From positions 16,926,001 to 16,990,000 of the forward strand of contig OZ024764.1 of assembly GCA_964016885.1 (NCBI GenBank): a stretch of DNA of 64,000 nt, given 5' to 3'. A program made the translations under genes and the position numbers. The stretch comes from Eledone cirrhosa. Lineage: Eukaryota. The notes under the pieces were generated by a model. It had not been told where the DNA came from. It did no database searches and worked only from the letters and a program-made list of their open reading frames with translations. Positions 7,113 to 64,000 of this stretch are shown piece after piece. Position 1 is the stretch's first letter. The number at the start of each line of letters is the position of its first letter.

Positions 7113-7555
7113 AGGCGCATGGCTTAGTGGTTAGAGCATTGGCCTTGCAATCGAAAGGTTGTGAGTTCAATTCTCAGGCTGGGTGATGTGTTATTACCCT
7201 GAGCAAGACACTTTATTTCACATTGCTCCAGTTTACTCAGCTGTAGAAATGAGATGATAGGGACTGGGGTCCCTATCATTCCACTACAAAGTGGCCGTGG
7301 AGGTGCCACGGCAAAAAGCACCCAGCCCACACTGTAAAGTGGTCGTGTAGGCCCCACAGAAAAAAGCACCCAGCACTCACTGTAAATGAGGTTGGTATTA
7401 GGAAGGGCATCCAGCTGTAGAAATCAAGCCAGAATCAGTTCCCGTATGAGCAAGACAAGGTCAGCCGACTGGACACTGCCCACAACAGGACAACCCGTCT
7501 AACCCATGCTAGCATGGAAGAACGGACGTAAAACGGTGATGATGATGATGAATGA
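7113..7555 (+). mobile_element. tRNA-derived SINE, family A (CORE-like body, RTE-like 3' tail ending in (ATG)n)
   Basis: A box TGGCTTAGTGG, B box GAGTTCAATTC, CORE-like CCTGAGCAAGACACTTTATTTCAC...CAGCTGTAGAAATGAG, tail AACCCATGCTAGCATGGAAG..(GAT)n. Further copies near 16450-16620(-), 35240-35405(-) and 60580-60875(-). Confidence 0.8.
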
Positions 7556-8820
7556 AATTATTGTGTACAGTGCTCAGGTGCACTACAACTTATCAAAGGT
7601 GCATGTATAGTACAAATGTCAGTGAATAGTGTATGAGTCATGATATACATGTGTGCGTGTGTATGGAGGGGGAATATCAGGTGTAGTGTTGGCGAATCTC
7701 AGGAAGCATGGAGGTTTTAAGGGATGCAGTGTCTCAGCAGCTAACAACCCGAATGAAGCTAGTACAGCGTTCCTTTGTCAGTGTTGAACAAATGAGCAAC
7801 GATGGTTGCTAGACACTGTACGGCTTAATTTGGGTTGTTTGTTTACAAACACACCGAGCATTATAATAAATGTTCGGTGAATCCATACGTACATGTATAT
7901 ATGTGTGCATGTATGTATATACATATACATACTACTGTACGTCTGTATACATATATGTATGTAACATGTATGGTAACATGTATCCCAGTACAACCTGTCT
8001 CATGGTCGGGACGTTGGCGACTAAACTGGCAACCCCACCAAGGTTTCTTGGTGAGGAGGGTGACTTTGGACATCCTGCAGGACTAAAAACAAAACCTGTC
8101 AAAGGGCAAAGGAGCTCTTAAGAGTCAATGGCCATCCAAAATCACCGGGAGAGATGACCCCTTAGCCTTTGTCAAGGCAGAATTCTAGGAGAAGGAAAAC
8201 TCTGATATAACACCTGCAACCCTGATGGTATCCAATGATGTTGACTTGTTCTTCTTTTTGGTAAATATCAACTTGGTTAAGAGAGTGGGACTGGCTTTGT
8301 GCAGTGCCTTTGCTCACTATAAAAGCTTCACGGCACAGGCATTGCTTTATATCTGGAGATCTCTCTGCACTTGTCGTCACATGGTGCCATGGGCCCAGCA
8401 CTATGTGTCAATAATTGTCATAAGTGTAGTGTTTGTACCAGAGTTTTCAAGTCGCTGGCTGGACTAAAAAGTCACACTCGTTCAGCGCATCGGTAGGGGT
8501 TCTCCTACATGGATATAAAGTAGTGGCCGTACTCGAAAACGAGTTGGCAGCCACCATGTATGTGTACATACTTATATTTAAGTAACAGCCGTACTAAGAG
8601 TGAGAAATGAAATTTAGTTTCATTTTTTCCGTTTATGTAATATTCATTCATTGTTTATTCAAAGTAATCCAACTTATTTTACAAACGGGATAAAAAGAAA
8701 TAAACTGTACACAGTCCTGCACTCCTTACTTTATTATAGTCCAGATAGATAGATACTCATATACACGTCTGTCTGTTGAATAACATTTTAGTTATTTATA
8801 TTTCTTATTCAGATCTGAAG

Positions 8821-32223
<23,403 letters not shown>

Positions 32224-35255: not shown

Positions 35256-35995
35256 ATCATCTCATTTCTACAGATGAGTAAACTGGAGCAATGTGAAATA
35301 AAGTGTCTTGCTCAAGGAAACAACACATCACCCGGTCCGAGAATTGAACTCACAACCTTTCGATTGCAAGCCCAATGCTCTAACCACTAAGCCATGCGCC
35401 TTCACCAGCCCTTAGATTTGACGGTGTATGAATACCAAAAGTCTACTTGGACCCCACAGTTGCTTCGTGCCTTTTTTTACTTCTCCCTATCAGTTGTGGC
35501 TTGAATTTTGTGGACACAAGGAGTCACGAATTATGTTCCCGGTCGATACTAGCAAGGTGTAGCAGTTAACAAGGAACTTTGGCCCTCTCAGCAAGGGCTC
35601 AACATCAACACACTTTGTTTTTGTTCAACTTAACCCTTTAGCATTTACATTACTCTATATATACTATTGTATTTTCACGGAGGTGCCCCGGCAAAAAAGC
35701 ACCCAGCCCACACTGTAAAGTGGTCGTGGAGGTGCCACGGCAAAAAAGCACCCAGCCCACACTGTAAAGTAGACGTGTAGGTGCCCCGGCAAAAAAGCAC
35801 CCAGCCCACACTGTAAATGAGCTTGGTGTTAGGAAGGACATCCAGCTGTAGAAATCAAGCCAGAATCAGTTCCTGTATGAGCATGCGTAGTTGAACTTTA
35901 AAATACTGCAAAGAATTCTATCTGATGTTCTAACAATTCTACCAAATTACCTTATGTATATATATTTATATCTAGAGATAAAAAGAAAACTGAAG

Positions 35996-40158: not shown

Positions 40159-42500
40159 TTATACTTCTCTTAGGTCAGTGTTGTTTGTTTGGGTGTTGTT
40201 GTTGTTCCACTCATTCTTTCTGTTTAGCTTTGGTCTTCTAATTTCTATTTCACTGGCCTCTCTGATTTGCCTATCTGCTGGGTCATTCCTATGTTTAGAT
40301 ATTATTCTAATTTCTATGTTGTCTATGTTACCGTCATGATGTTGTCTAGCATGTTCGTATAGTACTGACCCGTTTTTTCGTCCTTTTAGTTCCCCCCAGT
40401 GTTGGTCTATCCTTTCACCTATGCTACGAGCTGTCTCACCTATGTATGTTGTTGTCGTGTTTCTGCAAGTACCCTCTGTACATCTTATGCTATAGACTAC
40501 GTTTCTAGTTTTACAGTTTATCCGGGGGTTCACCTTACATATGATACATTTCCTATTGGTACAGTGGGTTTTCTTAAAAGGGTAGGTTTTGCTGATCAGG
40601 GATTTTATGGTGGTTCCTGGCTTTTCTACCACCTTTATTTTTAAGTGGGTCTTTCTCAGGGCCTTTCTACACTGGTTAGCTAATTTCCCTCCAGGGGTGG
40701 CGTCCACAAACATGACACTCTGATATCTCTGGTTGTCGTACCATGATGTGGCCTTCCCTATCTTATGTCTAGCCCTATCTAAGCTATTCCATGATTTGCT
40801 CCTGTATAGTGGGCAAATTCCTTTCATGTCCAGTTCTATGAGGGTCTTATACTTTTCCATGGCTCCTTCGTATACTCTGACTCTGTCTCTTTGGTTGTAG
40901 CCAGAGAACTGCATGCGGTTGATGAAGTGTTGGATGTGTCCTTCCATTTCTGTTGGGTCGCACATGCTGGACACATTCTTCATCACTCGTACCAAATCTG
41001 CGATCAGAATATTAAACTTAGCACTACTGGACATTGCTGAGTTTTTGAGTATCAGGTATTTGGAGGCCATGGGTTTAGCATAGTGTGAGTGGAGAATTTG
41101 GGCTCTCTCGTCTATAGTGTTAATCCAGAGTTCTGTGTCTAATACAGGTAGTCTATTGTTAGGGTGTTTGGAAGGGAAGTCTATAGTTACAGTTATACTC
41201 TGGTGTATGGAATTAGCTATCTGCTGGATGCTTTCCATCGTGCTACGTTCTAAATCAAACTTGTTAGTGCTCTCTAGTGGGGGTGTTCTTATAACTATAT
41301 TGATATCGTCTACATAACGAGAGTACATGATGAGGTCTATGGAGCTTTCATTAAGGAGATCTTTAAGTCTCCTTTCCCACCATACCATGAAAAGGTTGGC
41401 AACATCGCCAGCTATGCTGACGCCGATGGCTGCTCCCTCATTTTGGGTGTAGATTTTCTCATTGAACTTAAATATGTGGCCCTTTAGGGTAGTTTTGATA
41501 CTAGCCCCTATTGCATGTGCGACCATTTTTCTTACCTGATCAGTGTTTTGGGGGGTCCGTATAGCTTTGGTCCACCCAATCCACCTTCCTATGGGAGTCT
41601 TTTTAGCCATTGAGGTTATGGTGGGGGGTCTACCTCTTATAGGTCTACTAGGGCAGAAACATCTAAGGTCATGGCTGTCTAGGTAGTCAGTGTCGTAGGT
41701 AAGTCTAAGTAGGAGGCCCAGTTCGTCTGTGTCGACGTCGCAGAACTCCACCTCACTCTCAATGATCATCTCCACACATCTTTTCACAGCAAAATCAATG
41801 TTAATGGATGGGTACAGTGACACCACATCCATGCTGCCTATTATGCAGTTGGATAGGCTCCTGTTTTTGTTGCACTCACTGATTCCGCTGAGGAGGTCCT
41901 CTGTACTTTCACATACATCTGGGGACATCTTGATTATGGGGCGTATAACCATTGAGAGGAAGTAGGAGATCCTGTAGTTGCTAGCTATATTAGCTCCGCA
42001 TACAGGTCTTGTTGGTGGTCCTATTGTCGGGTCGTCGACTGTCTTGTGGTCTTTGCGGAGCCCATACAAGGGTGGTATGCCATTGTTAGACGCCTGGAAG
42101 TTGTTGGCAGTGCGTCTGCTTGGCTTTAGGATGTCAGTCCACATCATCATGTGAGCGTTGAGGATTTTTTCTCTCCCATCGTGTGTTAGTTGTGCAACTT
42201 CGCTCGTGTTGGTGATGTGGGGTTGCATTGCCTCGATGTAGTTCGGCATGCTATCTATTGACATCCTACCAGACTTATCTGTGGGTAGACACACTACCTC
42301 ACCATCCCTTGTGCGCTGCTTGAGGCTAACCAAGCCTTCTACAGGTTTTATCCCAAGTTGTTGGGCCTCTGGTCTGCTCTGTCTCATAGTGTACCTGTCT
42401 ACTACTTGTCTAATCTTATTTCTAGCTATGGTGAACTGTGCCTCCGTCTCGTCATCTATTTGTTGTGGTATGCAAACTCTTTTATTAAAGGGTAACCTCG
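40159..42500 (-). CDS. PLE reverse transcriptase + GIY-YIG endonuclease (uninterrupted, about 780 codons, true N-terminus missing)
   Basis: PTDKSG, LYGLRKDHK, SMDVVSLYPSI, QNEGAAIG, YSRYVDD, CTNRKCIIC linker, NVVYSIRC..YIGETAR..R..QH, REASEI...PKLN. Confidence 0.92.
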
Positions 42501-43797
42501 TACTGAACAAAAAAAAAAATGGCGTAGACATACAACACAACAGGAGGAACAATGAATATAACACCACTGACGATGTTGCAGATGTGCAACGAAAGATTTA
42601 TGTAAACTATATATATATGTGTTTGTCTATATTGTATCTGTATTATTTTTGACCGCCGGTCAGTCAATGGCAACATTGAGGACCGAGTAAGTTAGATCGC
42701 AGATATATATATATAAAAGACAGCGAGAAGCGAAAACCAACCAAACAGTGAGTGTGTTCTGTTATTAATTCTGGCAATATTACGCAAATATGACCCTCCC
42801 CAAATATAACAATATCTGTTTCGACACACGATTTCATATAAAAAACCTCGCAAAACTATATATATATATATATATATATACAGGTATAGCAAGTGTTGTT
42901 TCGAAATAATTTTTGCACCCATTTTTGCGATTAAGTAAAGACAGAGTTATCGTTCTTGAGATTTCGTCCTGGTGAAATTTATGGAACTGATGTCGCTAAA
43001 GCGTCAACTTATTAACTCGCACTGTTGCATCATGGGAGAGGTTAGAGTTTATTTTTTTTTAAATAAAAAGGCGAGTTTTTTAATTTACTCCTTGCCACCG
43101 TGTTTGTTGTTTGATAAATAAAAGAATTAATTCCCTCCCACACCTCCCTGTAATCTGAATATCTAATTACCATGGTGTCGGGAGTGGTTAATGTAAACAA
43201 AGGGCAATATGTAATCGCTACACCGGCCTCATAATAATTACTATTGTTCTCCTATTTTTCTTCGAAGTGATTTCGCTTCTTTCTTTCATAGAATTATGGC
43301 TAATTAATTTAAAGCCACTCACTGACGATCTCCGGCCTCTCACCCTCAGATGTTCTGTCTTCTACAACCCCTTTTAAAACAATGAAATGTGCATTCAACG
43401 ATGTAGATGTGCGTACCTTGATAATCATATAAACACAGGATGGTCACGGCAGGAATCCCATCGATTACACACATGTCGGGTCATCTTGTCTTGCTCGTTC
43501 AAGACCTGTGAATAAAAGTAAACAACAGCAACACGTCTCTACGTCTACGCTCCACTTGATAGAAATAGCAGCCAGGTTTCCTAAGAATTACGGAGGTGAA
43601 TTAGCTGTGACACATGTAAATACAATCTTTTATATTTTATCTGTGTAGGAAGATATTAACAATGTTTTTACTTTTGATTATGTATTTGTAAATATATGTC
43701 TTGATCGCTCAGGTCTGACTTGTCAATGAAAGTAAACAACAGCTCCCTTATGAAATGTTCACCATTTAAACCCCAAAATGCATACAGACATATATAA

Positions 43798-45475: not shown

Positions 45476-47154
45476 AGATGTATATATATATTATAAGAAT
45501 TTTCTGTACTATGGCCATATATTGTTTCCTTTATTTAAGTGTTGTGTTTGCACCACCTTAATCCATAAACTTTGGTGTAAGCAGGATTAAGCACTCTATG
45601 TATCCAACAGTGGTATTGGATTGCTTATAACACATTGAAGTATCAGTGTATATATATAGTTTTTTTTTTTTTGTCCCTTTCATTTCATAAAACCAAATAC
45701 CTAGTTAACTTCAACTACACTGTACTAAACACACTATATATACTATGTATGATGATGTCCAAGGATGATTCAAGTTGGCATTAGTTACATTCTAGAAATA
45801 TCCCATATTGCTCAATGCACACTCTGAAGGTTTCCTTTCGTCTTCCTCACATGAAACAGAGCTATCAGAGTCATTCTTTTTCACCGATGAATCAAGAACA
45901 TCATAAAGTTGTACATGAGTTGGCAGTGAATTTTGATTGCTCCACCAAGTCCTATGATAATGAACCTAACCACAATATCTTGCAGTTCTAGCATCACTTC
46001 TTCAAAGCCATCCTATGAGCTTTTCAGCTGATCCTCTTTTGTAGAGAAGAATGTTTATATAAATGTAGCTTTGTGTGTCTGACTAGAGAAGATTTAGTTG
46101 TGTTTATTTGACAAGGTAAGTATTTATATATAACTGTATCTATGTGTAAGTCTAGAGTAGGTTTAATTTCTTAGAAGAGGTTTATATAAATGTAGCTTTA
46201 TATGTTATGTGTGTAGAGAGAGAAGATGTTTTGTTTATTAGACAAAGTAAGTATGTATATATGAATGTAACAGAATGCCTTCAGTTCTCTGAATTAAAAT
46301 CCTGCTGAGGTCAACTTTGCCTTTCATCCATTTGAGGTTGATAAAACAAAGTACCAGTCTAGTATTGAGGTTGATTCTTCTGTTTCTCTGGAAGAAATCT
46401 GCTGTATTCAGACCTGGAGAGGAGATGGGTCTGCCAGGTTTTAAAAAGTGCCCTAGAAATACTGTATGTCAATGTGTGGCCTGTATGACTCCCTTAGGAG
46501 TTGCAGGTCCATGCATACATGTAACTCTCACAGTTTGGAAGTTCTGCATTCATCACATTGCTCCAGTACTCACAGCCAAGGAGTTAGTCCTGTGGTAGAC
46601 CAGCATACTATCCAGGGAGAGTCTTGTACTCTCAGACACTTAACACCAAGCAAACTGGTCATAAGCTGAGAACAGTCTTTATATATTATACTAAATTTTG
46701 GTCTAATCACATATCGATGAAGGAAATCATGGTCTTAAGATGCTTATTACCAAAATAGATAATTAGTGATTGATACTAATTACTAAGATCGATGGTTTGC
46801 ATTTTTTATTTTCTGTATTAACATAAACATTACTATCTTGAAGTAAATATACTTATTGTTCTGTATATATGTATTAAATACTAGTAGTTTAAACTTGTTA
46901 CATATAGAAACGGGATGAAAGTAAGGTAACACGGTCGTGAAAAAGTAATTTCTTTCTGAAAATATTTCGGAGACGAAGTATAATATTGATAATTATTCGG
47001 TAGAGATCTCAACTCTCACCATACGAAATATATTCAGAAAGAGATATTTCTCCACGCCCTCAGTTATCTCGTCTTCATTCCGTTTCTATATATATATTTT
47101 TTTAATAAATAAAATTCTAACTATAAGTATGACTAATTTACTCAGTAGAGTTGC

Positions 47155-47301
47155 GCTCTGTGCATGGCGCTGCACGTAACGTTTCGGGCTTCGCTGTCGT
47201 ACTTCGGTATGGCATGACCATTCTATGTGTCTGAAGATCGAATCGTTGCGGCGGCAGCCCGGCTTTATGCTGGCCTGCGTCCCCACCTCGCATTGAGTTT
47301 T
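47155..47301 (+). ncRNA. Putative Pol III structured small RNA, diverged copy 1 (147 nt)
   Basis: TATAAG at -33 (47122), B box GATCGAATC 47236-47244, cUUCGg hairpin 47195-47214, terminal stem GCTCtGTGC/GCATtGAGT, TTTT terminator. Confidence 0.55.
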
Positions 47302-48771
47302 ACTAAAAAATTCGCCGAGTTATCGTTTGAATTACTTGCCCCTGATTGGAACTATTCTCGTTTGTTGTCATTCTTCTTTATTGAATTAAACTGTTAACAT
47401 CGTTTGGATTTACTCGTGTAATTTGATAGAATCAGTCTGGATATTATACTAATGGTGAGAGGTATGTAATGTTTTATTTGCCGTATATACACTCACAGAC
47501 ATACATTATTCTATATGCCTTTCATCCTTATGGGGTCGATAAAATAAAGTACCAGTAATGCACTGGATAATTGCTGGCCTTGTGCCAAAAGTAGAAACAA
47601 TTATTCTATATACAGAAAGATTCTAGAGACGTACATATTGTTTTATTTAAACCTAAATACACACAAAACTAGATTTATATATATATAAATGTTCTTTAGC
47701 TGAGGTAAAATACCCTCTAATTTACCTGTACGAACGCTTTATTTGCCATGTATATTTTAATTCATTGCTAAACACTCGAAAATACAGTCTTAGATATATA
47801 TTAACATTCTTTAGTGTATGCATTCACCTCTATAATCCATACACTGGAAGAAACGTTTCCTATCTAGATCAATATACACATATAAAGCTACATTTATATA
47901 TACACTTTCATTCTTCTAAAGAGGTATGTAATGTTTTAGTTGTCCCTTAAATTCATCGATAAACACGTAGTTATTCCTGAGACACAAGAATAATAACTAA
48001 AACCCCTTCATACTTAGGAAAACTAAACATTCTATCTACATACACCGCCTTCTGTCTTATTCATAGTGGTACATCGTTAGAAGTAACTAACTAAGCCTTC
48101 TCTCGACACTATCATTGCATATTTTAAAATCCACTTCTTTATATACTATATTTAGGTTTAATCAATACATATATTGATGATTGGAATCATGGTCTTAAGA
48201 TTACCCAAATCGATACTAACTATTACAAATACAGATCTCTCTAAGGCTATGTTACCTACATATTAATTGTTCTGAAAAGATGCATCAGTCTTCTCCTCTA
48301 TGGAGCAGAAACGTAGCCCCTCACAAAGACGATTGACAGCAGAGCCCTGAGGACCATCACAGCCTGATGATGCCGGTCTAGTCTAACAAGAATAGATGTA
48401 CACAATACTCGAATATAAGGTGACCCTCCTCGCTATCTTATGTCTGAGAAGTGGGCAAAAATGCGAACCTTATTTACGTAGAATTTGAAGTTGGCGAAAA
48501 TGGTCAAACTATTGACTCCCTATATAAATCAACCCCTTACTACATATTCCCTGGCTTCTATTCGTGTAAATCCCGTTATATATGTACAAAACACTAGCAG
48601 TTCCTTAATGGCTATATATCCCGTTATATTTATATAGAAAGAGAAACGGAAAGAAAACGAGATAACACTCGGAATATGTCGTGTTATCTTGCTTTCTTTC
48701 CGTTTCTTTTTTTTTTAAAAAAGAAGTAAAATGTTAGCTATAAGTATGCCTATTTGACTCTGTAGAATTGC

Positions 48772-48934
48772 GGCTTGTGCGTGGCGCTGCACGTAGCGTT
48801 TCTGGCTTCGCTGTCGTACTTCGGTATGGCATGACCACTCGATCGTGTCTGAAGTTCGAATCGTTGCGGGGTCGGCCGGGACCGTTGCAGGCTGGCTTTA
48901 TGCTGGCCTGCTCTCCCGCCTCGCATGAGTTTTT
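48772..48934 (+). ncRNA. Putative Pol III structured small RNA, copy 2 (163 nt)
   Basis: TATAAG at -33 (48739), imperfect A box TGGCGCTGCACG, B box GTTCGAATC 48854-48862, terminal stem CTTGTGCG/CGCATGAG, several hairpins, T5 terminator 48930-48934. Confidence 0.62.
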
Positions 48935-50757
48935 GCCAAACAATTTGACGAGAGTTATCTCCCTTTGATTTGAGTTATTTGCCCTTTGTTGACATTGAAC
49001 AACTTCCGGTTTGTGGAACTCTTCTTCCTTTGTTGTCATTTCTTGAAGCTGTAACATCATTCTATTTACTCTGGGACTATTAACGATATCTGTTTGGATT
49101 TTACGTGTAAAGAGGTATGTAAAGTTTTATTTGCCGTGTATACACACATTATTGAGACACAAATGTAAGTTGCCATGTCTTTTAAAGAAACAAAACTAAA
49201 TATATACACGCAGCTACCTCTTCTAACTAAATATACATGTTACCCTCCTCTATTATGAAACAAAACTAACCATGATCTGTATATATACACCTCTTCTAAC
49301 ATGTTACAACTAAATCTTCTCTCGATACTATATACATACTTGTAAGGAAATATAACCAAGCTTCCTCTCTATATACATTTTATCTTCTGTATATAAACCT
49401 TATACCTGAATACACAGATATTCTATATACAAGAAGACACTTTTTCACGTAAATACACAAACACTTCAGGCATATTTATGTATTAGCCGTAAATTTATTC
49501 TAAACCATGTAGAGGAAGAATCCTGGGGACATACGTACACATGAAGCTATATTCATATATAAACGGTCTCCCTTCTATCATAACAGATACTTATGAGGCG
49601 CAATATACAAACTTGTTCATACTGGAATAATAGACATGAAACTAAACCTTCTCTAGACATATGAATATAGAAGCTAAACCATACAGTTATATTTTATATC
49701 TAACGAAGCATGGTAGCTCCATTACTCTGCCGTAACACTCCTTACTACTACTTCTAGCATCCTCACCTGCTTGATAGCTACATCATCCATATCTAAACGT
49801 TCTTCACTAGATACAAAACTAAACCTTTATATATACACAACTAACCTATTTTATATTCCTAAGGAAGAGCACCAGACCTGGAGACTACTACAACCCTATC
49901 TCAAGAAGAAAGGTAAATAAATTGTGAAATAAAAGAATAAACCAGTATTTTCCTTTGTTGCCTTATTATTTACTCCCTGTATATATACACACACTAGACA
50001 CCTCTTACACTGTAGGAAGACAAAAACCTTCTGTCACTGTATACTAGATTCATATTATATAAATTATTTCCTAGATACACCTATTAGAAACAAGCCATCT
50101 CTATATACAGGTAAATAACATCAGTGTAGACATGTCTGTATATAAGAAACTGTATTCTATAGAATATATCTAAACCCACATTGTGTGTATCTATATTATA
50201 CACGTGTATGTAGAAACCTGGAAGTGATCATACATATATAAGATAAGAGGTTTTGATCTGTACATACAGATCAATACATTCTCGCTAGATACTACACATA
50301 CCTCTCTGAGGAAACTACTACTATTGTTCTTCTAGTTGTGTATAAGGATCTCACAGTACAACGCGTACATGCTTCCTAAGAAGCAACAGAGCTAACTGTA
50401 TAAATACAAAGAAATTTAGTGTTCTTTACATACACACAAAGCTTACTTCATGTCTATAATATACCTTCTTCTCTATATTGGAAGAAGTACCTCCATTATA
50501 TATTGAAGTTGTGTTCAGTAGAGTACAGTATGTAGAACCATATGTACGCAGTTACCCTTTTCTTTAAAGGATACATCAATACCCTGTTCTCCTCTAGACA
50601 GGGATACTCACCATATAAACACTTTAGTGTATATAAAGCATATCTTCATTGTAAATTTAGAAGTTACACTACACAGATATAAAGACAACCTACATACATA
50701 TTAATACCCTTATATCTCTAGACTACTGTATTATATAAATATAGCTAAGGAATTAAA

Positions 50758-52898
50758 GATGTATGTATATATATACATACATATGCATGTATATATATAC
50801 ATACATATGTATGTATATATATACATACATATGTATATATATACATACATATGCATGTATGTATACAGACATATCTATGTATGTATATATACATGCATAT
50901 GTATACATATGTATGTATAAATACATACATATGTATATATATACATATGTATGTATATACGTACATATGTATATATATACATACATATGTATATATATAC
51001 ATATGTATATATATACACATGTATATATACATACGTATATATATACATATGTATATATATACATATGTATATATATACATACGTATGTATATATACATAC
51101 GTATGTATATATATATACGTATATATATACATACATATGTATGTATACGTATGTACGTATATGTATATATATAAATACGTACGTATGTATATACATACAT
51201 ATGCATATATATACGTATGTATGTACATACATACGTATATATATACATACATACGTATATACATACATATGTATATACATACATATGTATGTACATACAT
51301 ATGTATGTACATACATATGTATATACATACATATGTATGTACGTACATATGTACGTATGTAAATACATATGTATGTACATACACATGTATATACATACGT
51401 ATGTATGTACATACATACATATGTATGTATATACATACGTATGTATGTATATACATACGTATGTATGTACATACGTACGTACGTACATACATACATACGT
51501 ATGTATGTACGTACGTATATACATACGTACGTACATACATATGTATGTATATACATACATATGTATATACGTACGTATGTATATACATACATACGTATGT
51601 ATGTACATACATACATACGTATGTATGTATATACGTATGTATGTATAATACATACATATGTATGTACGTATATACATACGTATGTATGTATATACGTATG
51701 TATGTATAATACATACATATGTATGTACGTACATACGTATATACATACATACGTATGTATGTACATACATACGTATGTATACATACGTATGTATGTACAT
51801 ACGTGCGTATGTACATACATACATATGTACATACGTATGTATGTATATACGTATGTATGTACATACGTACGTACGTATATACATACGTACGTACATACAT
51901 ATGTATGTATGTATATACATACATACGTATGTATGTACATACATATGTATATACATACATACGTATGTATGTACATACATACGTATGTATGTATATACAT
52001 ACGTATGTATGTATATACATATGTATGTACGTACATACGTATATACATACATACGTATGTATGTACATACGTATGTATATACATACATATGTATGTATAT
52101 ACGTATGTATGTATGTACATACGTACGTATATACATACGTATGTATATACGTACATACATATGTATATACATACATACGTATGTATATACATACATACGT
52201 ATGTATGTACATACATACGTACGTACGTATATACATACATACGTATGTATGTACATACATACGTACGTATGTATGTACATACATACATATGTATGTACAT
52301 ACATATGTATGTATATACATACATATGTATGTACATACGTACGTATGTATGTATATACATACATATGTATGTACATACGTATGTATGTACATACATATGT
52401 ATGTATGTACATACATATGTATATACATATGTATGTACGTACATACGTATATACATATGTATGTGTTTATATACATACATATGTATGTACATACGTACGT
52501 ACGTATATACATATGTATGTATATACATACATATGTATATACATACATACGTATGTACATACATATGTATGTATATACATACGTATGTACATACATACGT
52601 ATGTATGTATATACATACATACGTATGTACATACATATGTACGTACGTACATACATACATACGTATGTATATACATACATACGTATGTATGTATATACAT
52701 ACGTACGTATATACATACATACATATGTATGTACATACATACGTATGTATATACATACATATGTATATATATACATACGTATGTATATATACATACATAT
52801 GTGTATACATACATATGCATGTATATATACATACATATGTATGTATACATACTTATGTATACATACATATGTATGTATGTATACATACATATGTATGT
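50758..52898. repeat. 2.1-kb TACA/TATG/TACG alternating purine-pyrimidine microsatellite
   Basis: Seen directly. It is flanked by a 21-bp exact direct repeat. Confidence 0.97.
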
Positions 52899-54992
52899 TT
52901 ATATAAATATAGCTAAGGAGTTAAACTTTTTTCTCTAGATAGAGATAAGTATGTCTATTCTATAGGATACTATTACCTTAAAACCATGTGTATATATACA
53001 CTTACTTCTATAGAATCCATACATATTAACACCTTTCTATCTCTAGGCATATGTATACATACAGAAAGAAATGGCCTCACTAGAATACTGCATTATATAC
53101 ATTACTTTCATGAAAGATGATTCGAACTGAATTCATACTTCTATTCCTATATACATACTGGGAGAGATATAGAATACAAATTTATTCTATATACAGAAGG
53201 AAATAAACTTACTAGAATACTGTATATATATACACATTATAAATGTTTATAATATGAAACTTCTTTATTAATACCTATATACTTACTGGTAAGTATGAGA
53301 GAGATATAGAATATCCACATAACCTCTTACAGGAGATATAGAATACCTATATATACAGTTCCCATTCTCAAAGAAACTTTTCTATAGCACCACACTTACT
53401 TCTTTCAGTAAGAAGGATGTTTCTTACTGGGATTCTATAGTGTAGATACACATTAATTAATCTAGTCTATATATACACTTCTTTCAAGAAGGATGTTTCT
53501 CACTAATTACATAATAATTGAATTCTCTCGCATGTTAATACCTTTTTATCTCTAGGCATGTGTTTAACAATCCACTAGTTATATATATACAGCTGTTAAT
53601 TCCTATATATTTAATATGAATGAAAGTTAAACGATCTACATGTAAGATACTACCTGTGTATATATATAAGAAACGAAAATGTGAAATAAAGATCAATAAA
53701 TAAACTACATTTTGTTGTTGGAGTTATTTTATTTCTTGAGACGACTGTGTGTATCTACACACTAAGTTGAGCTGGCGGAGATCTTCAACATATCTGGAAA
53801 GAAGCAGAGGGTATTAATAAAAACAATCCAGATTACACAGCTCTAACACCAATACTTTTCTAGAGGCAGAAATGAAACCTCTTTATCATGAACAGTTTAG
53901 TTTCTTAGGAGAGTGGGTATAGGGCTGTGAAATACAGTTTCTTATATGCCTCTAGATAAGGTATTACTGTATATATGGGTTTTTTTAAATTATAGAGGAG
54001 GATAGTAAATATAAGCCTTCTAGATGTTACAGAGGAGTCTCTACATACAAACAGTAGATTCTTTGCTGTGTACACACAATATATAGAAGTGTATTATATA
54101 CACACGTGTGTACAATATTTATATAACAAGGCAGTGTATTCTATAAAAAAACTGTATGTATGGGGAGTTGTTTTCCTCTATTGAGAAGGATAGTGAATAT
54201 AATGTCTTCTACATACAATAAATAGATGTCTTGATAAAATATCCAGAGTTTTATGTAAGTATCCTCGGGAAAAGTAGTAGAGAAGAGGGTTTTAACTTTA
54301 CCTTGTGTGTATGTAGATGCTGCATATATACGATACTTCGAAGTGTGTTTATGTATAGAAAGAGGGTCTGTATTCTATATACTACAGTTTCTTATATAGC
54401 TCCGGATACTGTGTATAATGAGGAGACATACCTTTCTTCTAAGTAAGTATATACAGAGAAGGTGTAATAGAGATACGATTATAATATAAATATATAGTTG
54501 ATATGATGTGTGCAAGAGAGAATGCTGAGTTGGAGTAAAGGTGGTGATGCCGAGGTAACTCGACGTAGAAATTACGATGGTATAGTATAGAGAGGAAAGT
54601 AACATGTATGTTTAGTTAGAAGAGGTAGCTGCGTGTATATATTATTTGTTTTGTTTTGTTTCTCGGAAGGAGGTTTAGTTCTGTGAAGAGTGTTTAGAAT
54701 AAATTTAAAAGACATGGCAACTAAAACATTACAAGAATGTATATTTCCAAGATAATGAAATGTATTTTTGTGTCTCAATAATATCCGTGAGTGTGAATAA
54801 AACTTTACATACCTCTTTACACGTAAAATCCAAACAGATATCGTTAATAGTCCCAGAGTAAATAGAATGATGTTACAGCTTCAAGAAATGACAACAAAGG
54901 AAGAAGAGTTCCACAAACCGGAAGTAGTTCAATGTCAACAAAGGGCAAATAACTCAAATCAAAGGGAGATAACTCTCGTCAAATTGTTTGGC

Positions 54993-55155
54993 AAAAACTC
55001 ATGCGAGGCGGGAGAGCAGGCCAGCATAAAGCCAGCCTGCAACGGTCCCGGCCGACCCCGCAACGATTCGAACTTCAGACACGATCGAGTGGTCATGCCA
55101 TACCGAAGTACGACAGCGAAGCCAGAAACGCTACGTGCAGCGCCACGCACAAGCC
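54993..55155 (-). ncRNA. Putative Pol III structured small RNA, copy 3 (identical to copy 2 by eye, convergent)
   Basis: Reverse complement of 48772-48934. Confidence 0.62.
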
Positions 55156-56714
55156 GCAATTCTACAGAGTCAAATAGGCATACTTATAGCTAACATTTTA
55201 CTTCTTTTTTTAAAAAAAAAGAACGGAAAGAAAGCAAGATAACACGACATATTCCGAGTGTTATCTCGTTTTCTTTCTATATAAATATAACGGGATATAT
55301 AGCCATTAAGGAACTGCTAGTGTTTTGTACATATATAACGGGATATACACGAATAGAAGCCAGGGAATATGTAGTAAGGGGTTGATTTATATAGGGAGTC
55401 AATAGTTTGACCATTTTCGCCAACTTCAAATTCTACGTAAATAAGGTTCGCATTTTTGCCCACTTCTTAGACATAAGATAGGGAGGAGGCTCACCTTATA
55501 TTCGAGTATTTTGTATATCTAGACCGGCATCATCATGGGTAGAGCCTACCAGATGCTACTGTGTTGAACGAGAGTAAGGCTGTGGGCTGATGTTTTAGAT
55601 GGTCCTCAGGGCTCTGCTATCAATCGACTTTGTGTGGGGCCACGTTTCTGCTCCATAGAAGAGAAGACTGATGCATCTTTCCAGAACAATTAATATGTAG
55701 GTAACATAGCCTTAGACAGATCTGTATTTGTAATAGTTAGTATCGATTTGGGTAATCTTAAGACCATGATTCCAATCATCAATATATGTATTCATTAAAC
55801 CTAAATATAGTATATATAAAATCTGTTCTCAGCTTCTCACCAGTTTCTTTGGAATTAAGTGTCTGAGAGTATAAGAATCTCCCTGGATAGGACACTGGTC
55901 TATCGCAGGATTAACTCCTCAGCTGAGTGTACTGATGAAATGTTTTTAAAGAATTACATACAGAACTTCCAAGCTGTGAGAGTTATATGTATGGACCCGT
56001 AACTCCCAAGGGAGTCATAGATGCAACGCATTGACATACAGTGTTTCTAGGACTCTTTTTAAAACCAGGTCTGAATACAGCGGATTTCTTCTAGAGAAGT
56101 GTAGAGGAAGAATTCACCAATAGATGGCTTCTATTATGAAGTTATAAGTTCATTCCCTATCCAGGATTGTAGAATTAATTTTATTTAGTTATTATTTAAT
56201 CAATTGTTTTAACAAACAAATTATATCTATAAAACGCCAAATATAGTGAGTTCAAATCTGACTGACATGCATGGTATATATTTATGTTTCATTATACAGC
56301 GACACAATACACAGGAACTTATAAAGATATGTATATATTGTCCAGGAGTTTCGAGTTTAGTGGGAATTGGTACAACTCTCAATTGGAGCTAGTCCCTGCA
56401 AGATCAGCATAAATAATGTTATACCTTTTCATGAAATCTTATTTTATACATGATTATTTAAAGGTGAACAAATACCAAAGAACATTGAGCAGCATTTCTC
56501 AACCTTTCTACCCATGTTGATCTCTTGAAATAGTTTTTATGTCTCAGGGAAGCCCTGCATAAAATATACTTTTTCTATCTCTAGAGCAGTGGTTCCAAAA
56601 TCGTGTGCTGCGATATGAAACTAGATGAGCTGCAAAAGACAAAGATTAAGTTTTAAGATGGGAAAAATATAAAACTGAAATTTCATATAAAAGTTCAAAT
56701 ATAGCTACAGCCAC

Positions 56715-56950: not shown

Positions 56951-57296
56951 AGGGACCACTTAGACTGGGGTGAAGTGTCTGTCTCTCCCCCGACTTCTTA
57001 TTTCTTTTTTTTTCTCCTTTTCATTTTCTTTTCTCTTCTTGCTTATCTCTGCTATACCACGGCATCAAAAACATATATGATATATGTATGTATGGTATAG
57101 GTGTATTTATATTTAGGATAGTTATCAAAGGTAAATAGACTGGTTGGAGCAATAACAGTTTTGTTTATGTATATACATATATATATATATATGTTTGTTC
57201 TTGTATTTCCATAGAAAAGGTAAAGAAAAGAAGAATGCTCTATGTATTGTACAGAGCTATTTAATTACATAATAAACAACAGAATATAATTATTCT

Positions 57297-58580
57297 ATGC
57301 AAATAGACTTAGAATGGAAAACATTCAGACAGAGAAGAATGGATAATGAGCGTCGTAAGAGAAATTGGCCAACAATTAATATTAATGGGAATGTAGAAGA
57401 ATTTCATATTAGTGATATGAATGTTTCGTGTGATCACTGTGGAGCTTTGAAATTTAGAAATGAAAATTGTAACTGTTGTAATAAAGGAAAGGTTGTGTTG
57501 CCTCCATTGCAAATATACCCTGAGAGACTGAGAAATCTCTTTGAAAGAGGCCAGGAAGCAGTTGATTTCACAGAAACATCTGCAATTAAAACTACATTTA
57601 TTTCACTTCATTTGGTGTTAAACTTGCCTTACCACCCGGCAGAGGCCCGTATAGCTTTCATATTCAGGGTCAAACATAGAAGAGAAAATTGTCGTGTACA
57701 GAACTGTGAATTAAGATTTAGAAGAGGATCAGATATGAGCTGTTATAATTTACCAACTAGTAATGATAGCTGTTGTTTTGTGGGGGATTGAGGGCACACC
57801 ACCTGTACAAAGAGATATTATCATCTTTCCTAAAGACCATCCTCCTCAGAAAATACCACATAATTCATGGCACTTGGACCTCACGACCGACCCATAATGG
57901 TTAATTTTGGTGGCATAGTGACATGGAGAGGAATGCAGGACCTGTGTTTGCAATAGACTGACAATGCAGGAGTATTACATATACTGATAGCATATAGAGG
58001 AGGATATAGTGTGATATATAGGGCAGGTAAATTATTTTAGCAGTATTTAGTGGAAGCCTATATGAAAGTAGAGGGATGCAGCCTTCAATATTTGAGGAAC
58101 ATTCAAGCCCAATTGTGAGTGGATGAGTATAATGGTTTAATGAATTATCTAAACAGATGATAACACTGAGCCTTAAGAAATGAAGACAAGATAAGAAAGA
58201 GAGAAGACATTGACAAACTCCAATTAAAAGCAGGATCAATAATAATGCTTCTATGGAATATTTCAATCCAGAACAGATTATGTAATGGTATAAGATTAGA
58301 AGTAGTGGAACTGCATAAACATTTTATCGAAGCTTCTCATATCTATGGTCCTTTGATGGGCAGGTGTGTTTTGATCCCAAGACTGAAGTTATCCCCCAGT
58401 GGTGCCAACATCCCTTTTACTTTGGAAAGACCCCAGTTTCCATTAAGACTGTCATATGCCATGACAATCAACAAGAACCATGGTCAAATACATGATAAAG
58501 TGGGTCTGTTCCTCCCTGAGCAAGTATTTAACCCTGGACAATTGTATGTTGCTTTTTCAAGAGTTCACAGACAGATGTAA
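57297..58580 (+). pseudogene. Decayed autonomous Helitron Rep/PIF1-helicase fragments
   Basis: CDHCGALKF..CCNKGKVVLPPL; QYLVEAYMKVEG..LQYLR near 58040; RLCNG.RL..LIPRL.L..PF...QFPLRLSYAMTINK..GQ...GQLYVAFSRV. Deletions and frameshifts throughout. Confidence 0.85.
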
Positions 58581-59337
58581 AAATTAATCCTACCAACGCC
58601 ACCACTCCTACAACTGTTAGCCCACCCAACCTCCGTTCTAGTCCCACCGTTAGAACCAATGCTGCTTACCCAGCCTCTTTTACTAGTTCTCTCCGTCGCT
58701 CGAATTTCAAAGCTGGCCCTCTACACTTGGTCGTTGCCAGCTCACCACCTGATTGTGCTCTCTGTGTCTGCACTAGCCGGTACCTAAACACAATGAAATG
58801 TCACCTGTGCTACCAAAACTACCACAGGAACTGTGTCGGCATCAGAAAGGCTTCAATACTAGACCTTTAATCAGGGCCACTTTAGCTCCGACGACCAGCT
58901 TCTCTACCGAGTGTGTGTTGGTGGAGGGGACATGAGACCAGCAAAGTCGTAGGAGTAGAGACTAGTAAATAATATACGGTCCTAGCTATGTTAAGAATAT
59001 ATATAAGAAACATGTTCTTTACATTTAAGAAGACAAGAGAAATAAATATTTACCTCTTTCATGTAGGTAATATAGCGGTGTTATAAAACTAAATATACGA
59101 CCGGTGTAACAGTCGGTATAAAGGAAAGATGTAGAAATAAAAGTTTTAACAATGACATGAATAAAGATACAGTAATTTAATATGACCAAGAATAAATATT
59201 TAATGGAATTAAATGTAATTTAATAAGAAATAAGTAAAAGAGTGAATTGCTTAGGTAAAAGAAAAAAACAAAATGAAGAAACATAAAATTTGGTTTGTCT
59301 TTATAAACCTTATTTTAAGCGCGATTTTCCTTCTAAT

Positions 59338-59586
59338 TCCGTAGCTCAGTTAGTAGCAGCTCCGCTTACTAACCTTAGGGCTATAACGTTACATGGTTCG
59401 AATCTTACACTCTTCTCTATAGTGCCACACGAGTTATCTCCTACTCTTTTTATTTAGTTTCACTGTTTAGTGAAAGAGGGCGCTACGAACAGTTACTTAT
59501 GTAGACGGGTGGTTAGCGACTCGGCTTACTAACATTAGCATCATGACGTTACGTGGGTTCGAACCGTGCCGGCGCCTCAATTTTTC
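59338..59586 (+). pseudogene. Two degenerate tRNA-like sequences (Ser/Leu-like long variable region), pseudo-tRNA or SINE heads
   Basis: TAGCTCAGTTAG..GCTTACTAAC..ACGTTACATGGTTCGAATC and GGTGGTTAGCG..GCTTACTAAC..ACGTTACGTGGGTTCGAACC..TTTTTT. The stems do not close cleanly. Confidence 0.4.
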
Positions 59587-62887: not shown

Positions 62888-64000
62888 TTACACAGACCCT
62901 TGCAGTTCCCCCGTCTGAAAGATGACTTGACCACAATGCTCCTGGGGTATTAATATGGCCTGAGGGTGAGGCTGGTGGTTACTTAGATTCGCCACTGTTG
63001 GTGTCACAGAAGTTGTCACTACGTCCTGCAAAAGGCTTCGATAGGCCGCGACATTCATCATGGTTACATCCGACATTTCATAATCGATTGTCTCCCCTTG
63101 GCATTCGGCCGTTATCACCAGGTGGTGCTGCTGTTCGTTCTGGTTGTGTATTGTCTCCCCTCGGCATTCGGCTGCTATCACCAGATGGGGTTGCTGTTGC
63201 AGTCGGTTGTTGTTGTTGTCATACTCTATTGTCTCCCCTTGGCATTCGGCCGCTATCACCAGGTGGGGCTGCTGTTGTTGTAGTCGGTTGTTGTTGTGGT
63301 GGTTGTTGCTGCTGTCGGTGTCGCCATAGTCAATTCTCTCCCCTTGGCACTCGGCCGTTATCACCAGATGGTGCTGCTGCTGGTGTTGCTGGTTGTTGTT
63401 GTTGTTGCTGCTGTTGCTGTGGTGTAATGCAGCCTCTAGCTGGATGCGGTTGCCATCGGCAATCACAAAGTCCTCCTCCTGTTCAACGATGAAGCTCACA
63501 GTGTTGTGATCCTCTGCATTAGGTGCGACAGGCGTAGAAATCATCAACGGTTCTTCTGCAAGTACTGGTGCTGTTGTTGTTGTTGCTGTTGTGTGCAGCT
63601 TTGGCAGGCGTGACATGGTTTGCTGCATCCCATGCATTTTCAGTTCATGTCGCTGCAAGTGGTGCTTGTGTCGGAACATATAGCTGCATATTGAACATCG
63701 GAACTTGCCCTCCGTCGTGTGCGCTCGGAAGTGGGCCTGGCACATCACGTCCGTCTTGAAACGCCAGGTGCAGCCGGGGAACTGGCACGCAAACGGCCGG
63801 ACCGGGTCGTGCACTCGCTTGTGCTTGTTCAGCGTCGACTTGTCGGAGTAGGCGTAACCGCAGACGTTGCATATGACGCTGCCCTCGTTGTGCAACTGCC
63901 GGTGGGCGTGGATCGCGGCGTTGATCTTCGACGTGAAACCGCACTGCCTGCACCTGTAGGCGCTCTTGTTGTGTGTGCGCTCGTGCGCGGCGAGGTAGGT
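62888..64000 (-). CDS. C2H2 zinc-finger protein, 3' part (frame open to the window edge)
   Basis: The frame from 64000 reads TYLAAHERTH-NKSA-YRCRQC..HRQLH, CNVC..HKRVH, CQFPGC..HFRAH, CSIC..HELKMH (4 full and 1 partial finger), then a T/N/Q-rich repetitive tail and TAA at 62888-62890. Confidence 0.9.
   Translation of the reverse strand, partial: TYLAAHERTHNKSAYRCRQCGFTSKINAAIHAHRQLHNEGSVICNVCGYAYSDKSTLNKHKRVHDPVRPFACQFPGCTWRFKTDVMCQAHFRAHTTEGKFRCSICSYMFRHKHHLQRHELKMHGMQQTMSRLPKLHTTATTTTAPVLAEEPLMISTPVAPNAEDHNTVSFIVEQEEDFVIADGNRIQLEAALHHSNSSNNNNNQQHQQQHHLVITAECQGERIDYGDTDSSNNHHNNNRLQQQQPHLVIAAECQGETIEYDNNNNRLQQQPHLVIAAECRGETIHNQNEQQHHLVITAECQGETIDYEMSDVTMMNVAAYRSLLQDVVTTSVTPTVANLSNHQPHPQAILIPQEHCGQVIFQTGELQGSV

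Follow-up and report, generated by a model that had tools for sequence, protein, structure and literature searches.

A candidate multi-copy Pol III small-RNA gene in Eledone cirrhosa, likely derived from tRNA-Arg(UCG) and predicted to fold into a rod

The three GC-rich islands described here, contained in a single window (the whole stretch of 64,000 nucleotides of Eledone cirrhosa DNA that was analysed), appear to represent a multi-copy Pol III small-RNA gene, likely derived from tRNA-Arg(UCG), whose product is predicted to form a rod, with its own 3' extension as the closing strand, a reading to which we assign a probability a shade above even. The best reading of the sequence is that of a candidate gene belonging to a lineage-specific family of tRNA-derived Pol III small RNAs, similar in kind to BC1, 4.5SI and snaR.

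Organization and duplication of the islands

The islands, already recognized as GC-rich in a first-pass annotation of this DNA, are all present, and their composition (56-60% GC) is clearly distinct from that of the 200-nt flanks (29-35%). The relevant features are the following.

46899..47094, no strand: palindrome upstream of copy 1, with ~70-bp arms and AT-dinucleotide flanks, ending ~28 nt before the TATA box
47122..47127, plus: TATA box of copy 1 (TATAAG)
47155..47301, plus: copy 1, 147 nt, diverged, its 3' extension carrying a 15-nt deletion; A box 47165, B box 47236, T4 47298
48140..49163, plus: duplicated segment containing copy 2, with 91% overall identity to its inverted partner 54767-55816
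48638..48711, no strand: palindrome upstream of copy 2, ~30-bp arms and a 12-nt loop
48739..48744, plus: TATA box of copy 2 (TATAAG)
48772..48934, plus: copy 2, 163 nt, predicted Pol III transcript
50762..52911, no strand: TA-rich microsatellite of 2.1 kb, spacer between the inverted copies 2 and 3, outside the gene
54993..55155, minus: copy 3, letter-identical to copy 2; A box 55145, B box 55073, T run 54997
55183..55188, minus: TATA box of copy 3 (TATAAG), beginning at 55188
55226..55277, no strand: palindrome upstream of copy 3, with a shortened arm

Over their 163 nt copies 2 and 3 do not differ by a single letter, and no further copy was found within the 64-kb window, so that three is a count for the window only. 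The proposal that the islands spread with their flanks by segmental duplication, and not as a SINE, is supported by the shared flanks, by the duplicated segment and by the depth of contigs in public sequencing runs (see below); indeed, the islands end in a T run and not in an A-rich or repeat tail, their flanks are common to the copies, and no similarity to the SINEs of the window was found at word size 7. The scan of open reading frames also disclosed, at 58170-58577, a Pif1/Helitron fragment, from a decayed Helitron 2 kb away.

Promoter, terminator and predicted fold

In each copy TATAAG lies 33 nt before the inferred start and is followed by an A box with one mismatch, a B box and a T4-5 run, the first pass having annotated the A box as imperfect; since the start itself is inferred, the distance of 33 nt represents a conserved spacing and not a mapped start. 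This Pol III type-2 layout with an upstream TATA is nearly unique in the window: 13 pairs of A and B boxes occur on the two strands of the whole window, and both a TATA and a T run accompany only 4 of them, namely the three copies plus one unit distinct from them, at 59342. Kinship of the islands with the tRNA-like pair at 59.3-59.6 kb was considered and found unsupported (P 0.09-0.65, one masked test out of 8 giving 0.033).

The predicted fold of copy 2 has an energy of -75.2 kcal/mol (z -4.25), a value reached by 0/200 shuffles, while for copy 1 z is -2.97 and 2/200 shuffles are as good; the fold is also strand-asymmetric, the plus strand scoring -74 vs -52 for the minus strand, with 13 and 1 G-U pairs, respectively. 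Pair probabilities of 0.67-1.0 back the terminal stem, the cUUCGg hairpin and the 10-bp hairpin of the original description; a short hairpin at GCGC, close to the 5' end and also part of it, reaches only 0.04-0.12 and would be the relic D-stem. Two elements deserve separate mention.

48812..48831, plus: 8-bp UUCG hairpin, invariant in the three copies, at the place where an intron would be expected in a tRNA
48875..48934, plus: 3' extension of 60 nt, with the 10-bp hairpin at 48887-48911, a strand at 48922-48930 that pairs with the 5' end, and the T5 terminator at 48930-48934

Complementarity between the 3' extension and the 5' end extends to a 3-nt insert present in the latter, and when a cloverleaf is forced on the same sequence its energy is -41.4 vs -75.2 kcal/mol for the rod, that is, 34 kcal/mol worse; from this modelling the RNA is predicted to be rod-shaped, closed by its own 3' extension, and not a cloverleaf.

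Conservation among copies and occurrence in public runs

Between copies 1 and 2 the RNA is conserved better than its flanks, 127/147 aligned sites being identical (86%) against 165/246 in the flanks (67%; Fisher p=1.6e-5), and the stretch from TATA to start retains 28/33 positions; such a contrast could also stem from GC content, from biased alignment or from gene conversion across the many copies. The statement that the changes of copy 1 respect the fold proved selective: judged against the fold of copy 2, 6 pairs are kept, 3 of them owing to a shifted stem end, and 5 are broken, while the substitutions fall on paired and unpaired sites alike (15/114 vs 5/33). Copy 1, which provides no covariation support, is a diverged paralogue, possibly decaying.

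A search of sequencing runs for the element listed no RNA run, a blank without bearing on expression, and 5 runs whose kind is unrecorded, belonging to 2 studies. Runs X1, X3 and X4 stem from a single study, in which the sample of the window itself may be included. In the DNA runs contigs span the element and its flanks; the summed depth on the element is ~490 at one clean site, and 800-2000 per bin in X1, values of the order of the flanks and far below the neighbouring repeat at 48471-48510 (~21,000). These data suggest tens of copies with flanks in the genome, and not a dispersed SINE, as a rough estimate, contig depth not being equal to copy number. Some contigs of low depth bridge the 3' part of the element, which shows that there are truncated copies.

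In run X5, which bears another organism label and comes from another study, a single 151-nt contig (depth 5, run kind unrecorded) covers 48774-48917 with 7 differences (95% identity); all 6 listed substitutions are unpaired or preserve a G-U pair, the probability of this by chance being 0.01-0.05. Two side observations on X5, not counted as evidence, are that the contig starts 2 nt inside the inferred start, and that the flanks and the high-copy repeat are uncovered apart from six low-complexity pieces of 31-32 nt; this coverage pattern would fit a library made from RNA and a more distantly related genome equally well.

Elsewhere, the exact 22-nt hairpin motif had 0 matches in metagenome contigs, its relaxed form had 4 in viral contigs (by pattern only), and the A-box-region motif had 0 exact matches in viral contigs. 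Six motifs of the element are absent from the literature searched by text, and literature listings for Pol III RNAs and SINEs of octopus, for vault RNA of invertebrates and for the major vault protein of cephalopods show no description of it, most subscription papers and Repbase/Dfam lying outside the range of this search.

Relationship with tRNA-Arg

The hypothesis of a tRNA ancestry arose post hoc, after inspection of the sequence. Nucleotides 1-103 of the island read colinear with tRNA positions 1 to 73, with an insert at the intron site, and in copy 2 the register is as follows.

48772..48874, plus: tRNA-Arg(UCG)-like register, inferred ancestry, position 1 at 48772
48782-48793, plus: U8/A box; relic D-stem at 48784-48799
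48807, plus: U33; anticodon position 48808-48810 (UCG)
48854-48862, plus: T-loop/B box; acceptor 3' strand and discriminator at 48867-48874

The earlier verdict of "no tRNA cloverleaf" thus holds for the fold, while it misses the fact that the first 103 nt stand in the register of a tRNA-Arg. Loci for comparison were fetched with a gapped pattern made of window letters from which the anticodon was left out; 155 were returned, many being near-duplicates, and ARAGORN classified 47 of them as tRNA-Arg(UCU/UCG), 34 as tRNA-Thr(UGU/CGU) and 36 as other, finding nothing in 38. At positions outside the fetch pattern, copy 2 agrees with tRNA-Arg(UCG) of loci L060/L086 at 16/24, the best value among 41 distinct tRNA segments (P ~0.001 under two shuffles). 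When the anticodon and the invariants are excluded, tRNA-Arg scores 5-11/19, tRNA-Thr(UGU) 4-7 and non-tRNA matches 1-9; tRNA-Lys(UUU) likewise reaches 9-10/19, which counts against an Arg ancestry. The cloverleaf-register score, with the boxes kept fixed, is 20/25 for copy 2 (P=0.009) and not significant for copy 1 (P=0.067), and pairwise alignment to tRNA-Arg yields z values of 4.2 and 3.5 for two sequences, the one with 3.5 being out of register, and 1.3-2.6 for two others.

Profile methods give a different picture. No copy matched, at E<=10, nhmmer profiles built from the fetched tRNA-Arg (31 sequences) and tRNA-Thr (18), the same profiles having detected SINE heads in the window; Rfam and ARAGORN report no tRNA in the islands, the output of ARAGORN at lowered threshold being noise; and when 100 of the 155 loci were compared with a covariance model of the element, no tRNA locus scored above E 0.37. 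Six loci from metagenomes (L006, L022, L067, L068, L105 and L110) were discarded as relatives, the shared sequence continuing past the tRNA-like head in a SINE-like manner; Rfam gave no useful match for the 4/6 submitted to it. The comparisons speak both for and against homology to a tRNA beyond the promoter boxes; on the best reading the island likely descends from a tRNA-Arg(UCG) gene.

Alternative explanations

Although we consider it unlikely, a functionless tRNA pseudogene, or a tail-less SINE head, travelling as passenger of a larger amplified segment would account for the tRNA-like register, for flanks amplified as much as the element according to contig depth, and for the truncated copies seen through low-depth contigs over the 3' part; the joint retention of TATA, spacing and terminator, better than that of the flanks, argues against it, as do a 3' extension complementary to the 5' end down to the 3-nt insert and an X5 variant compatible with the fold. 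The lack of covariation in copy 1 and the Pif1/Helitron fragment in the neighbourhood speak for such a passenger, while the lack of both a tail and a match to the SINEs of the window speaks against a SINE head.

Longer vault RNA occurs in protists, and the first-pass annotation had suggested a molluscan vault RNA; the corresponding explanation, namely that the island is a molluscan vault RNA, long and highly diverged, which binds TEP1 in vault particles, is quite improbable. According to excerpts of PMC7058938 and PMC8824774, little besides boxes A and B is conserved among vault RNAs, and the island does share with them a type-2 promoter with an upstream element, a predicted 5'/3' panhandle, clustered paralogues, oligo-U and 7/8 letters of the vault motif TTACTTCG at +45 to +52. 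RF00006 is nevertheless silent at E<=10, also when the 176-nt stretch is scanned by itself, although the family includes Lottia and Helobdella members (PMC8824774, in excerpt), and the motif and box B are misplaced: the TTACTTCG-like motif lies 23 nt past box A as the loop of the closed UUCG hairpin, and not directly 3' of box A (in five putative Fasciola vault RNAs it is ~20 nt from the 5' end; Table S9), and box B is ~70 nt from the 3' end of the island. The length is 163 nt (147 in copy 1) vs 80-150 nt for vault RNAs in the excerpt of PMC8824774, and the central region, the single-stranded form of which is preferred by TEP1 (PMC7916137, in excerpt), is predicted to be mostly paired. Neither a CRE-like site in the 200 nt upstream nor a protocadherin among the 122 open reading frames scanned in the window was seen, both being vertebrate traits and weak tests outside vertebrates. 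As for other known families, Rfam at gathering threshold and at E<=10 returned nothing meaningful, SRP, snRNA, 7SK, RNase P/MRP, Y, 5S, VA, EBER and ribozymes included, in keeping with the original remark that no SRP, snRNA, 7SK or RNase P/MRP signature is visible; likenesses to 5S rRNA, 7SK, 7SL, tRNA-Sec and human vault RNA, taken as mere starting points, find no support in Rfam.

That the islands encode an unusual intron-containing pre-tRNA-Arg, still processed to tRNA or fragments, is very improbable: UCG at the anticodon position, the intron-site insert, 7/7 acceptor pairs with a 3-nt bulge and 4/4 D-stem pairs are set against the loss of A14, G18-G19 and purine 37, an anticodon stem of 2/5 pairs, the 34 kcal/mol by which the cloverleaf is less stable and the silence of ARAGORN, and a cloverleaf with the invariant residues of a functional tRNA is not found. 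Scarcely credible is the LTR of a Pol III-driven TRIM of the Helenus/Ajax type (which carry tRNA-like sequence in their LTRs, PMC10886601, in excerpt), or a virus-derived VA-like gene, since copies 1 and 2, albeit direct repeats 1.6 kb apart, are just 72% identical, copy 3 is inverted in a 1-kb duplication, known Helenus elements measure 311-1263 bp in all (same excerpt), and neither a VA/EBER match in Rfam nor an exact A-box-region match in viral contigs was obtained.

Proposed mechanism and significance

If the islands are a tRNA-derived Pol III gene, TFIIIC would bind the A and B boxes and TFIIIB would be placed via the TATA; Pol III would start at or just before 48772 and stop in the T run, and La would bind the 3' oligo-U. 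The last 9 nt ahead of the U tail would capture the 5' end, and therefore the acceptor, D and T stems would remain unformed and the transcript would escape processing by RNase P, RNase Z and the splicing endonuclease. The product would be a stable, mostly double-stranded RNA of 160 nt, whose dose would be raised by segmental amplification. By analogy with snaR, BC1 and VA RNA, its most likely job would be to engage double-strand-RNA-binding or translation proteins, as their ligand or as a decoy; that the RNA has any job at all may be given about even odds.

Octopus-type animals show extreme RNA editing. It is conceivable, albeit decidedly unlikely, that in an invertebrate lineage, probably that of octopuses, a tRNA-Arg gene independently gave rise to an abundant Pol III RNA, amplified and rod-shaped, titrating double-strand-RNA-binding or translation proteins in the nervous system; convergent with BC1 and snaR, it might modulate ADAR as an endogenous factor. 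Domesticated tRNA- or SINE-derived Pol III RNAs (BC1, 4.5SI, snaR) have been described from mammals; a conserved, amplified mollusc example would, if true, make this route to new regulatory RNAs a general one, with its steps preserved in readable form: the tRNA, the insert at the intron site, and the 3' extension locking the 5' end. A tRNA-derived rod would be an invertebrate counterpart of the mammalian RNAs of this type, and not a vault RNA; a vault RNA after all would extend that family to a form missed by Rfam.

Comparison with known systems

With tRNA-Arg(UCG/UCU), e.g., loci L060 and L034, the island has in common the register 1 to 73, UCG at the anticodon position and the intron-site insert; it differs in the loss of the D-loop invariants and of purine 37, in the 3-nt acceptor insert, in the 60-nt 3' extension and in the rod fold. 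With vault RNA (RF00006) it shares the type-2 promoter with upstream elements, the panhandle and the clustered paralogues, and differs from it in matching no model, in its misplaced motif and box B, in its greater length and in its paired central part.

The gene-level features of RNAs of the BC1/4.5SI/snaR type, which is a kind and not a single family, are found here, namely an own gene, an upstream TATA, internal boxes, a terminator and duplication with flanks. Rodent 4.5SI RNA has a tRNA origin, a TATA-like box at -31/-24 and three genes 4-40 kb apart (PMC10137851, in excerpt); like the island, it combines a tRNA-related origin, A and B boxes with a required TATA-like box, and three genes a few kb apart, while the genes of rodent 4.5SH lie in tandem multi-kb units. 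Unlike the island, 4.5SI is 98 nt long, tied to the B2 SINE and restricted to rodents, no sequence relation being expected; the island has 163 nt, a stem closing 5' and 3' ends, and no counterpart among the SINEs of the window. Rodent BC1, in which a tRNA-Ala is refolded into an extended stem-loop (PMC6114260, in excerpt), is a Pol III RNA of ~150 nt with a refolded tRNA-derived domain, as predicted for the island; it is encoded by a single gene and contains a central A-rich tract binding PABP, whereas the island is Arg-like and multi-copy and has no A-rich tract. Great-ape snaR, with ~30 genes, segmental duplication and NF90 binding (PMC3045588, in excerpt), resembles the island in being a lineage-specific, structured Pol III RNA, duplicated with its flanks and expanded between the A and B boxes; snaR derives from Alu/7SL and has been shown to bind NF90 and ribosomes.

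Organization of the locus

The three GC-rich islands described in the first-pass annotation are indeed present, and all three carry TATAAG, an A box, a B box and a T run, with a constant spacing between TATA and A box. Upstream of each TATA lies a conserved palindrome, ending about 28 nt before it; this could either belong to the promoter or be the fossil of a transposon. The relevant features are as follows:

47155–47301, plus strand: copy 1
48772–48934, plus strand: copy 2
54993–55155, minus strand: copy 3
46899–47094, 48638–48711, 55226–55277: upstream palindromes, one before each TATA
47317, 48952, 54968, 59431: 8-nt GATA-like motif
8749–15773, plus strand: serine carboxypeptidase (S10) exons, flanking the region
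62891–64000, minus strand: C2H2 zinc-finger frame, flanking the region

Some changes in the palindromes are mirrored on both arms, and that of copy 1 has long, MITE-like arms with AT-dinucleotide flanks; the GATA-like motif is identical 3' of the terminator in all copies and is also found within the palindrome arms and in the 59.4-kb unit described below.

Copies 2 and 3, identical over 163 nt, lie in the arms of an inverted duplication (48140–49163 versus 55816–54767; 91% identity over the whole length, rising to near 99% next to the gene) enclosing a 2.1-kb microsatellite. For copy 1 the shared context is about 480 nt long, at 72%. No further copies were found within the window, where TATA and T run accompany only 4 of the 13 A/B-box pairs on both strands, namely the three copies and one other unit. 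Copies 1 and 2 are 86% identical in the RNA part and 85% from TATA to start, versus 67% in the flanks (p=1.6e-5).

A decayed Helitron (57276–58580), with a Pif1 2B domain match at 58170–58577 and Rep-like fragments upstream of it, is a possible vehicle for the duplication. On the minus strand at 40162–42597, direct terminal repeats enclose an open frame of 812 codons whose match to reverse transcriptase is weak (E 3e-4) and whose GIY-YIG-like end was recognized by eye; this is a Penelope-like element, apparently intact. An isolated R3H-domain fragment (45785–45988, plus strand, E 3e-9), 1.2 kb upstream of copy 1, is either an exon or a captured piece.

Copy number

The stretch is present in five public runs, none on record as RNA; four were compared with the window, all as contigs. 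In the sequencing runs X1 and X4 (one sample) and X3, contigs extend over both element and flanks, and these runs are therefore DNA-like. In X1, near-window-identical flank contigs have depths of 156–314 and long diverged contigs 5–11; in X3, where the contigs total only 88 Mb, the same flanks stand at 11–14. Although depth is no copy number, a single-copy depth of about 6–11 in X1 would place the gene-plus-flank unit in tens of copies. These probably fall into two or more main types, since the depth at 48884 is about 160 for the copy-2-like form and 285 for a variant form. These depth runs come from one study and may include the window's own source. Element depth does not exceed that of the flanks, unlike that of a very high-copy short repeat 260 nt upstream of copy 2 (48471–48510; summed X1 depth about 21,000), and the SINE-like dispersal considered in the first-pass annotation is therefore not seen.

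Probable relationship to tRNA

The absence of a tRNA cloverleaf, noted earlier, holds for the fold; what had been overlooked is that nucleotides 1–103, counted from the inferred start, can be aligned to tRNA. This register comprises U8, a D stem of 4 bp closing a loop of 8 nt, Y32-U33, UCG at the anticodon position, an insert where tRNA introns usually lie (it contains the UUCG hairpin that is invariant among the copies), a variable loop of 5 nt, a T loop, and an acceptor strand pairing the 5' end in 7/7 positions across a 3-nt bulge. With A and B boxes fixed, copy 2 scores 20/25 where the null gives 15.1 (P=0.009), and copy 1 scores 18 (P=0.067).

A gapped pattern of the window's letters, without the anticodon, fetched at least 155 loci (at least 116 metagenome, one viral, 38 genome); on the 155 listed, ARAGORN called 47 Arg(UCU/UCG), 34 Thr(UGU/CGU), 36 other and 38 none. 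Among the canonical, non-identical tRNAs of this list (31 Arg and 27 other), Arg gave the best match at positions outside the pattern, with a rank-test p inflated by the relatedness of the sequences, and the best single match was a tRNA-Arg(UCG) (16/24, P about 0.001). Several results speak against a tRNA origin: pairwise scores are modest, tRNA-Lys nearly equals Arg over 19 sites, nhmmer tRNA profiles found 0/3 copies although they found the window's SINE heads, and tRNAs were not singled out when a model built from the element was run on 100 of the at least 155 fetched loci. On balance, descent from tRNA-Arg is reasonably probable.

Other tRNA-like sequences were noted. Two tandem plus-strand units, 69% alike over 140 nt (59303–59452, with TATA, A box, B box and T5; 59500–59585, with B box and T6), may represent another family of Pol III type, or else tRNA pseudogenes; ARAGORN and Rfam, scanning the first, gave no call. 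tRNA-derived SINE heads or tails lie at 7118–7181 and 35339–35394, with tails at 47516–47618 and about ten other sites, several expanded into minisatellites of 33-, 77- and 91-bp units. The SINE tails, together with the general style of the genome, point to an octopus as host. Four metagenome loci (L006, L022, L067, L105) form a SINE-like family, not recognized by Rfam, with a tRNA-like head that, like the element, bears U at position 14 and folds into long stems.

Predicted fold

Fold z is −4.25 for copy 2 and −2.97 for copy 1, with a clear preference for the plus strand over the minus. A forced cloverleaf reaches −41.4 kcal/mol versus −75.2 for the predicted fold, in which the pairs of the acceptor stem receive probability 0, whereas pairing of the 5' end with the 3' extension comes close to 1; the modelled RNA is of non-tRNA fold. 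The earlier claim that changes in copy 1 respect the structure is selective, as 5 pairs are broken and 6 kept, and paired sites are substituted at the same rate as unpaired ones; copy 1 supplies no support for the fold. Weak support comes from a contig of another run, X5 (151 nt, depth 5, spanning 48774–48917 with 7 differences; different organism label and study), in which each of the 6 listed substitutions either falls at an unpaired site or leaves a G-U pair in place (chance 0.01–0.05).

Alternative explanations

A serious rival, on balance unlikely, is that the element is a functionless amplified tRNA pseudogene: the tRNA-like register and the equal amplification of the flanks speak for it, the better conservation of the element than of its flanks and the X5 variant against it.

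That it is a vault RNA, as first suggested, is improbable, and it should not be so classed: promoter type and panhandle agree with PMC7058938 and PMC8824774, but the motif which in invertebrate vault candidates directly follows box A (PMC8824774; Table S9) is here displaced by 23 nt and enclosed in the UUCG hairpin, roughly 70 nt separate box B from the 3' end, no upstream CRE-like site was found, and protocadherins are absent from the neighbours (7/122 ORFs with Pfam hits), which comprise a serine carboxypeptidase gene, a Penelope-like reverse transcriptase, an R3H fragment, a Helitron helicase fragment and a C2H2 zinc-finger gene. The family was rightly called unrecognized, no Rfam match at gathering score or E≤10 being obtained with the 401-nt and 176-nt stretches; ARAGORN found no tRNA in the element, which has no tail and no likeness to the window's own SINEs.

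Proposed mechanism and comparison with known systems

Judged from its sequence, the element is a real, previously unannotated candidate RNA gene; no prior description was found in the literature searched, which did not extend to repeat databases, subscription papers or supplements on bioRxiv. In Pol III transcription, TFIIIC binds boxes A and B, TFIIIB the TATA, termination occurs at T4-5 and La binds oligo-U (PMC10137851, PMC6114260). At this putatively tRNA-derived candidate gene the same factors would act at its A/B boxes, TATA, T4-5 and oligo-U; pairing of the 3' extension with the 5' end would block tRNA processing, and the product would be a stable 160-nt rod RNA. Its likeliest role would be the binding of double-strand-RNA-binding or translation proteins, proposed purely by analogy with snaR, which binds NF90 (PMC3045588), and BC1, which acts on translation factors (PMC6114260). 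The element would work like 4.5SI, BC1 and snaR, lineage-specific Pol III RNAs of mammals, while being a member of none of these families.
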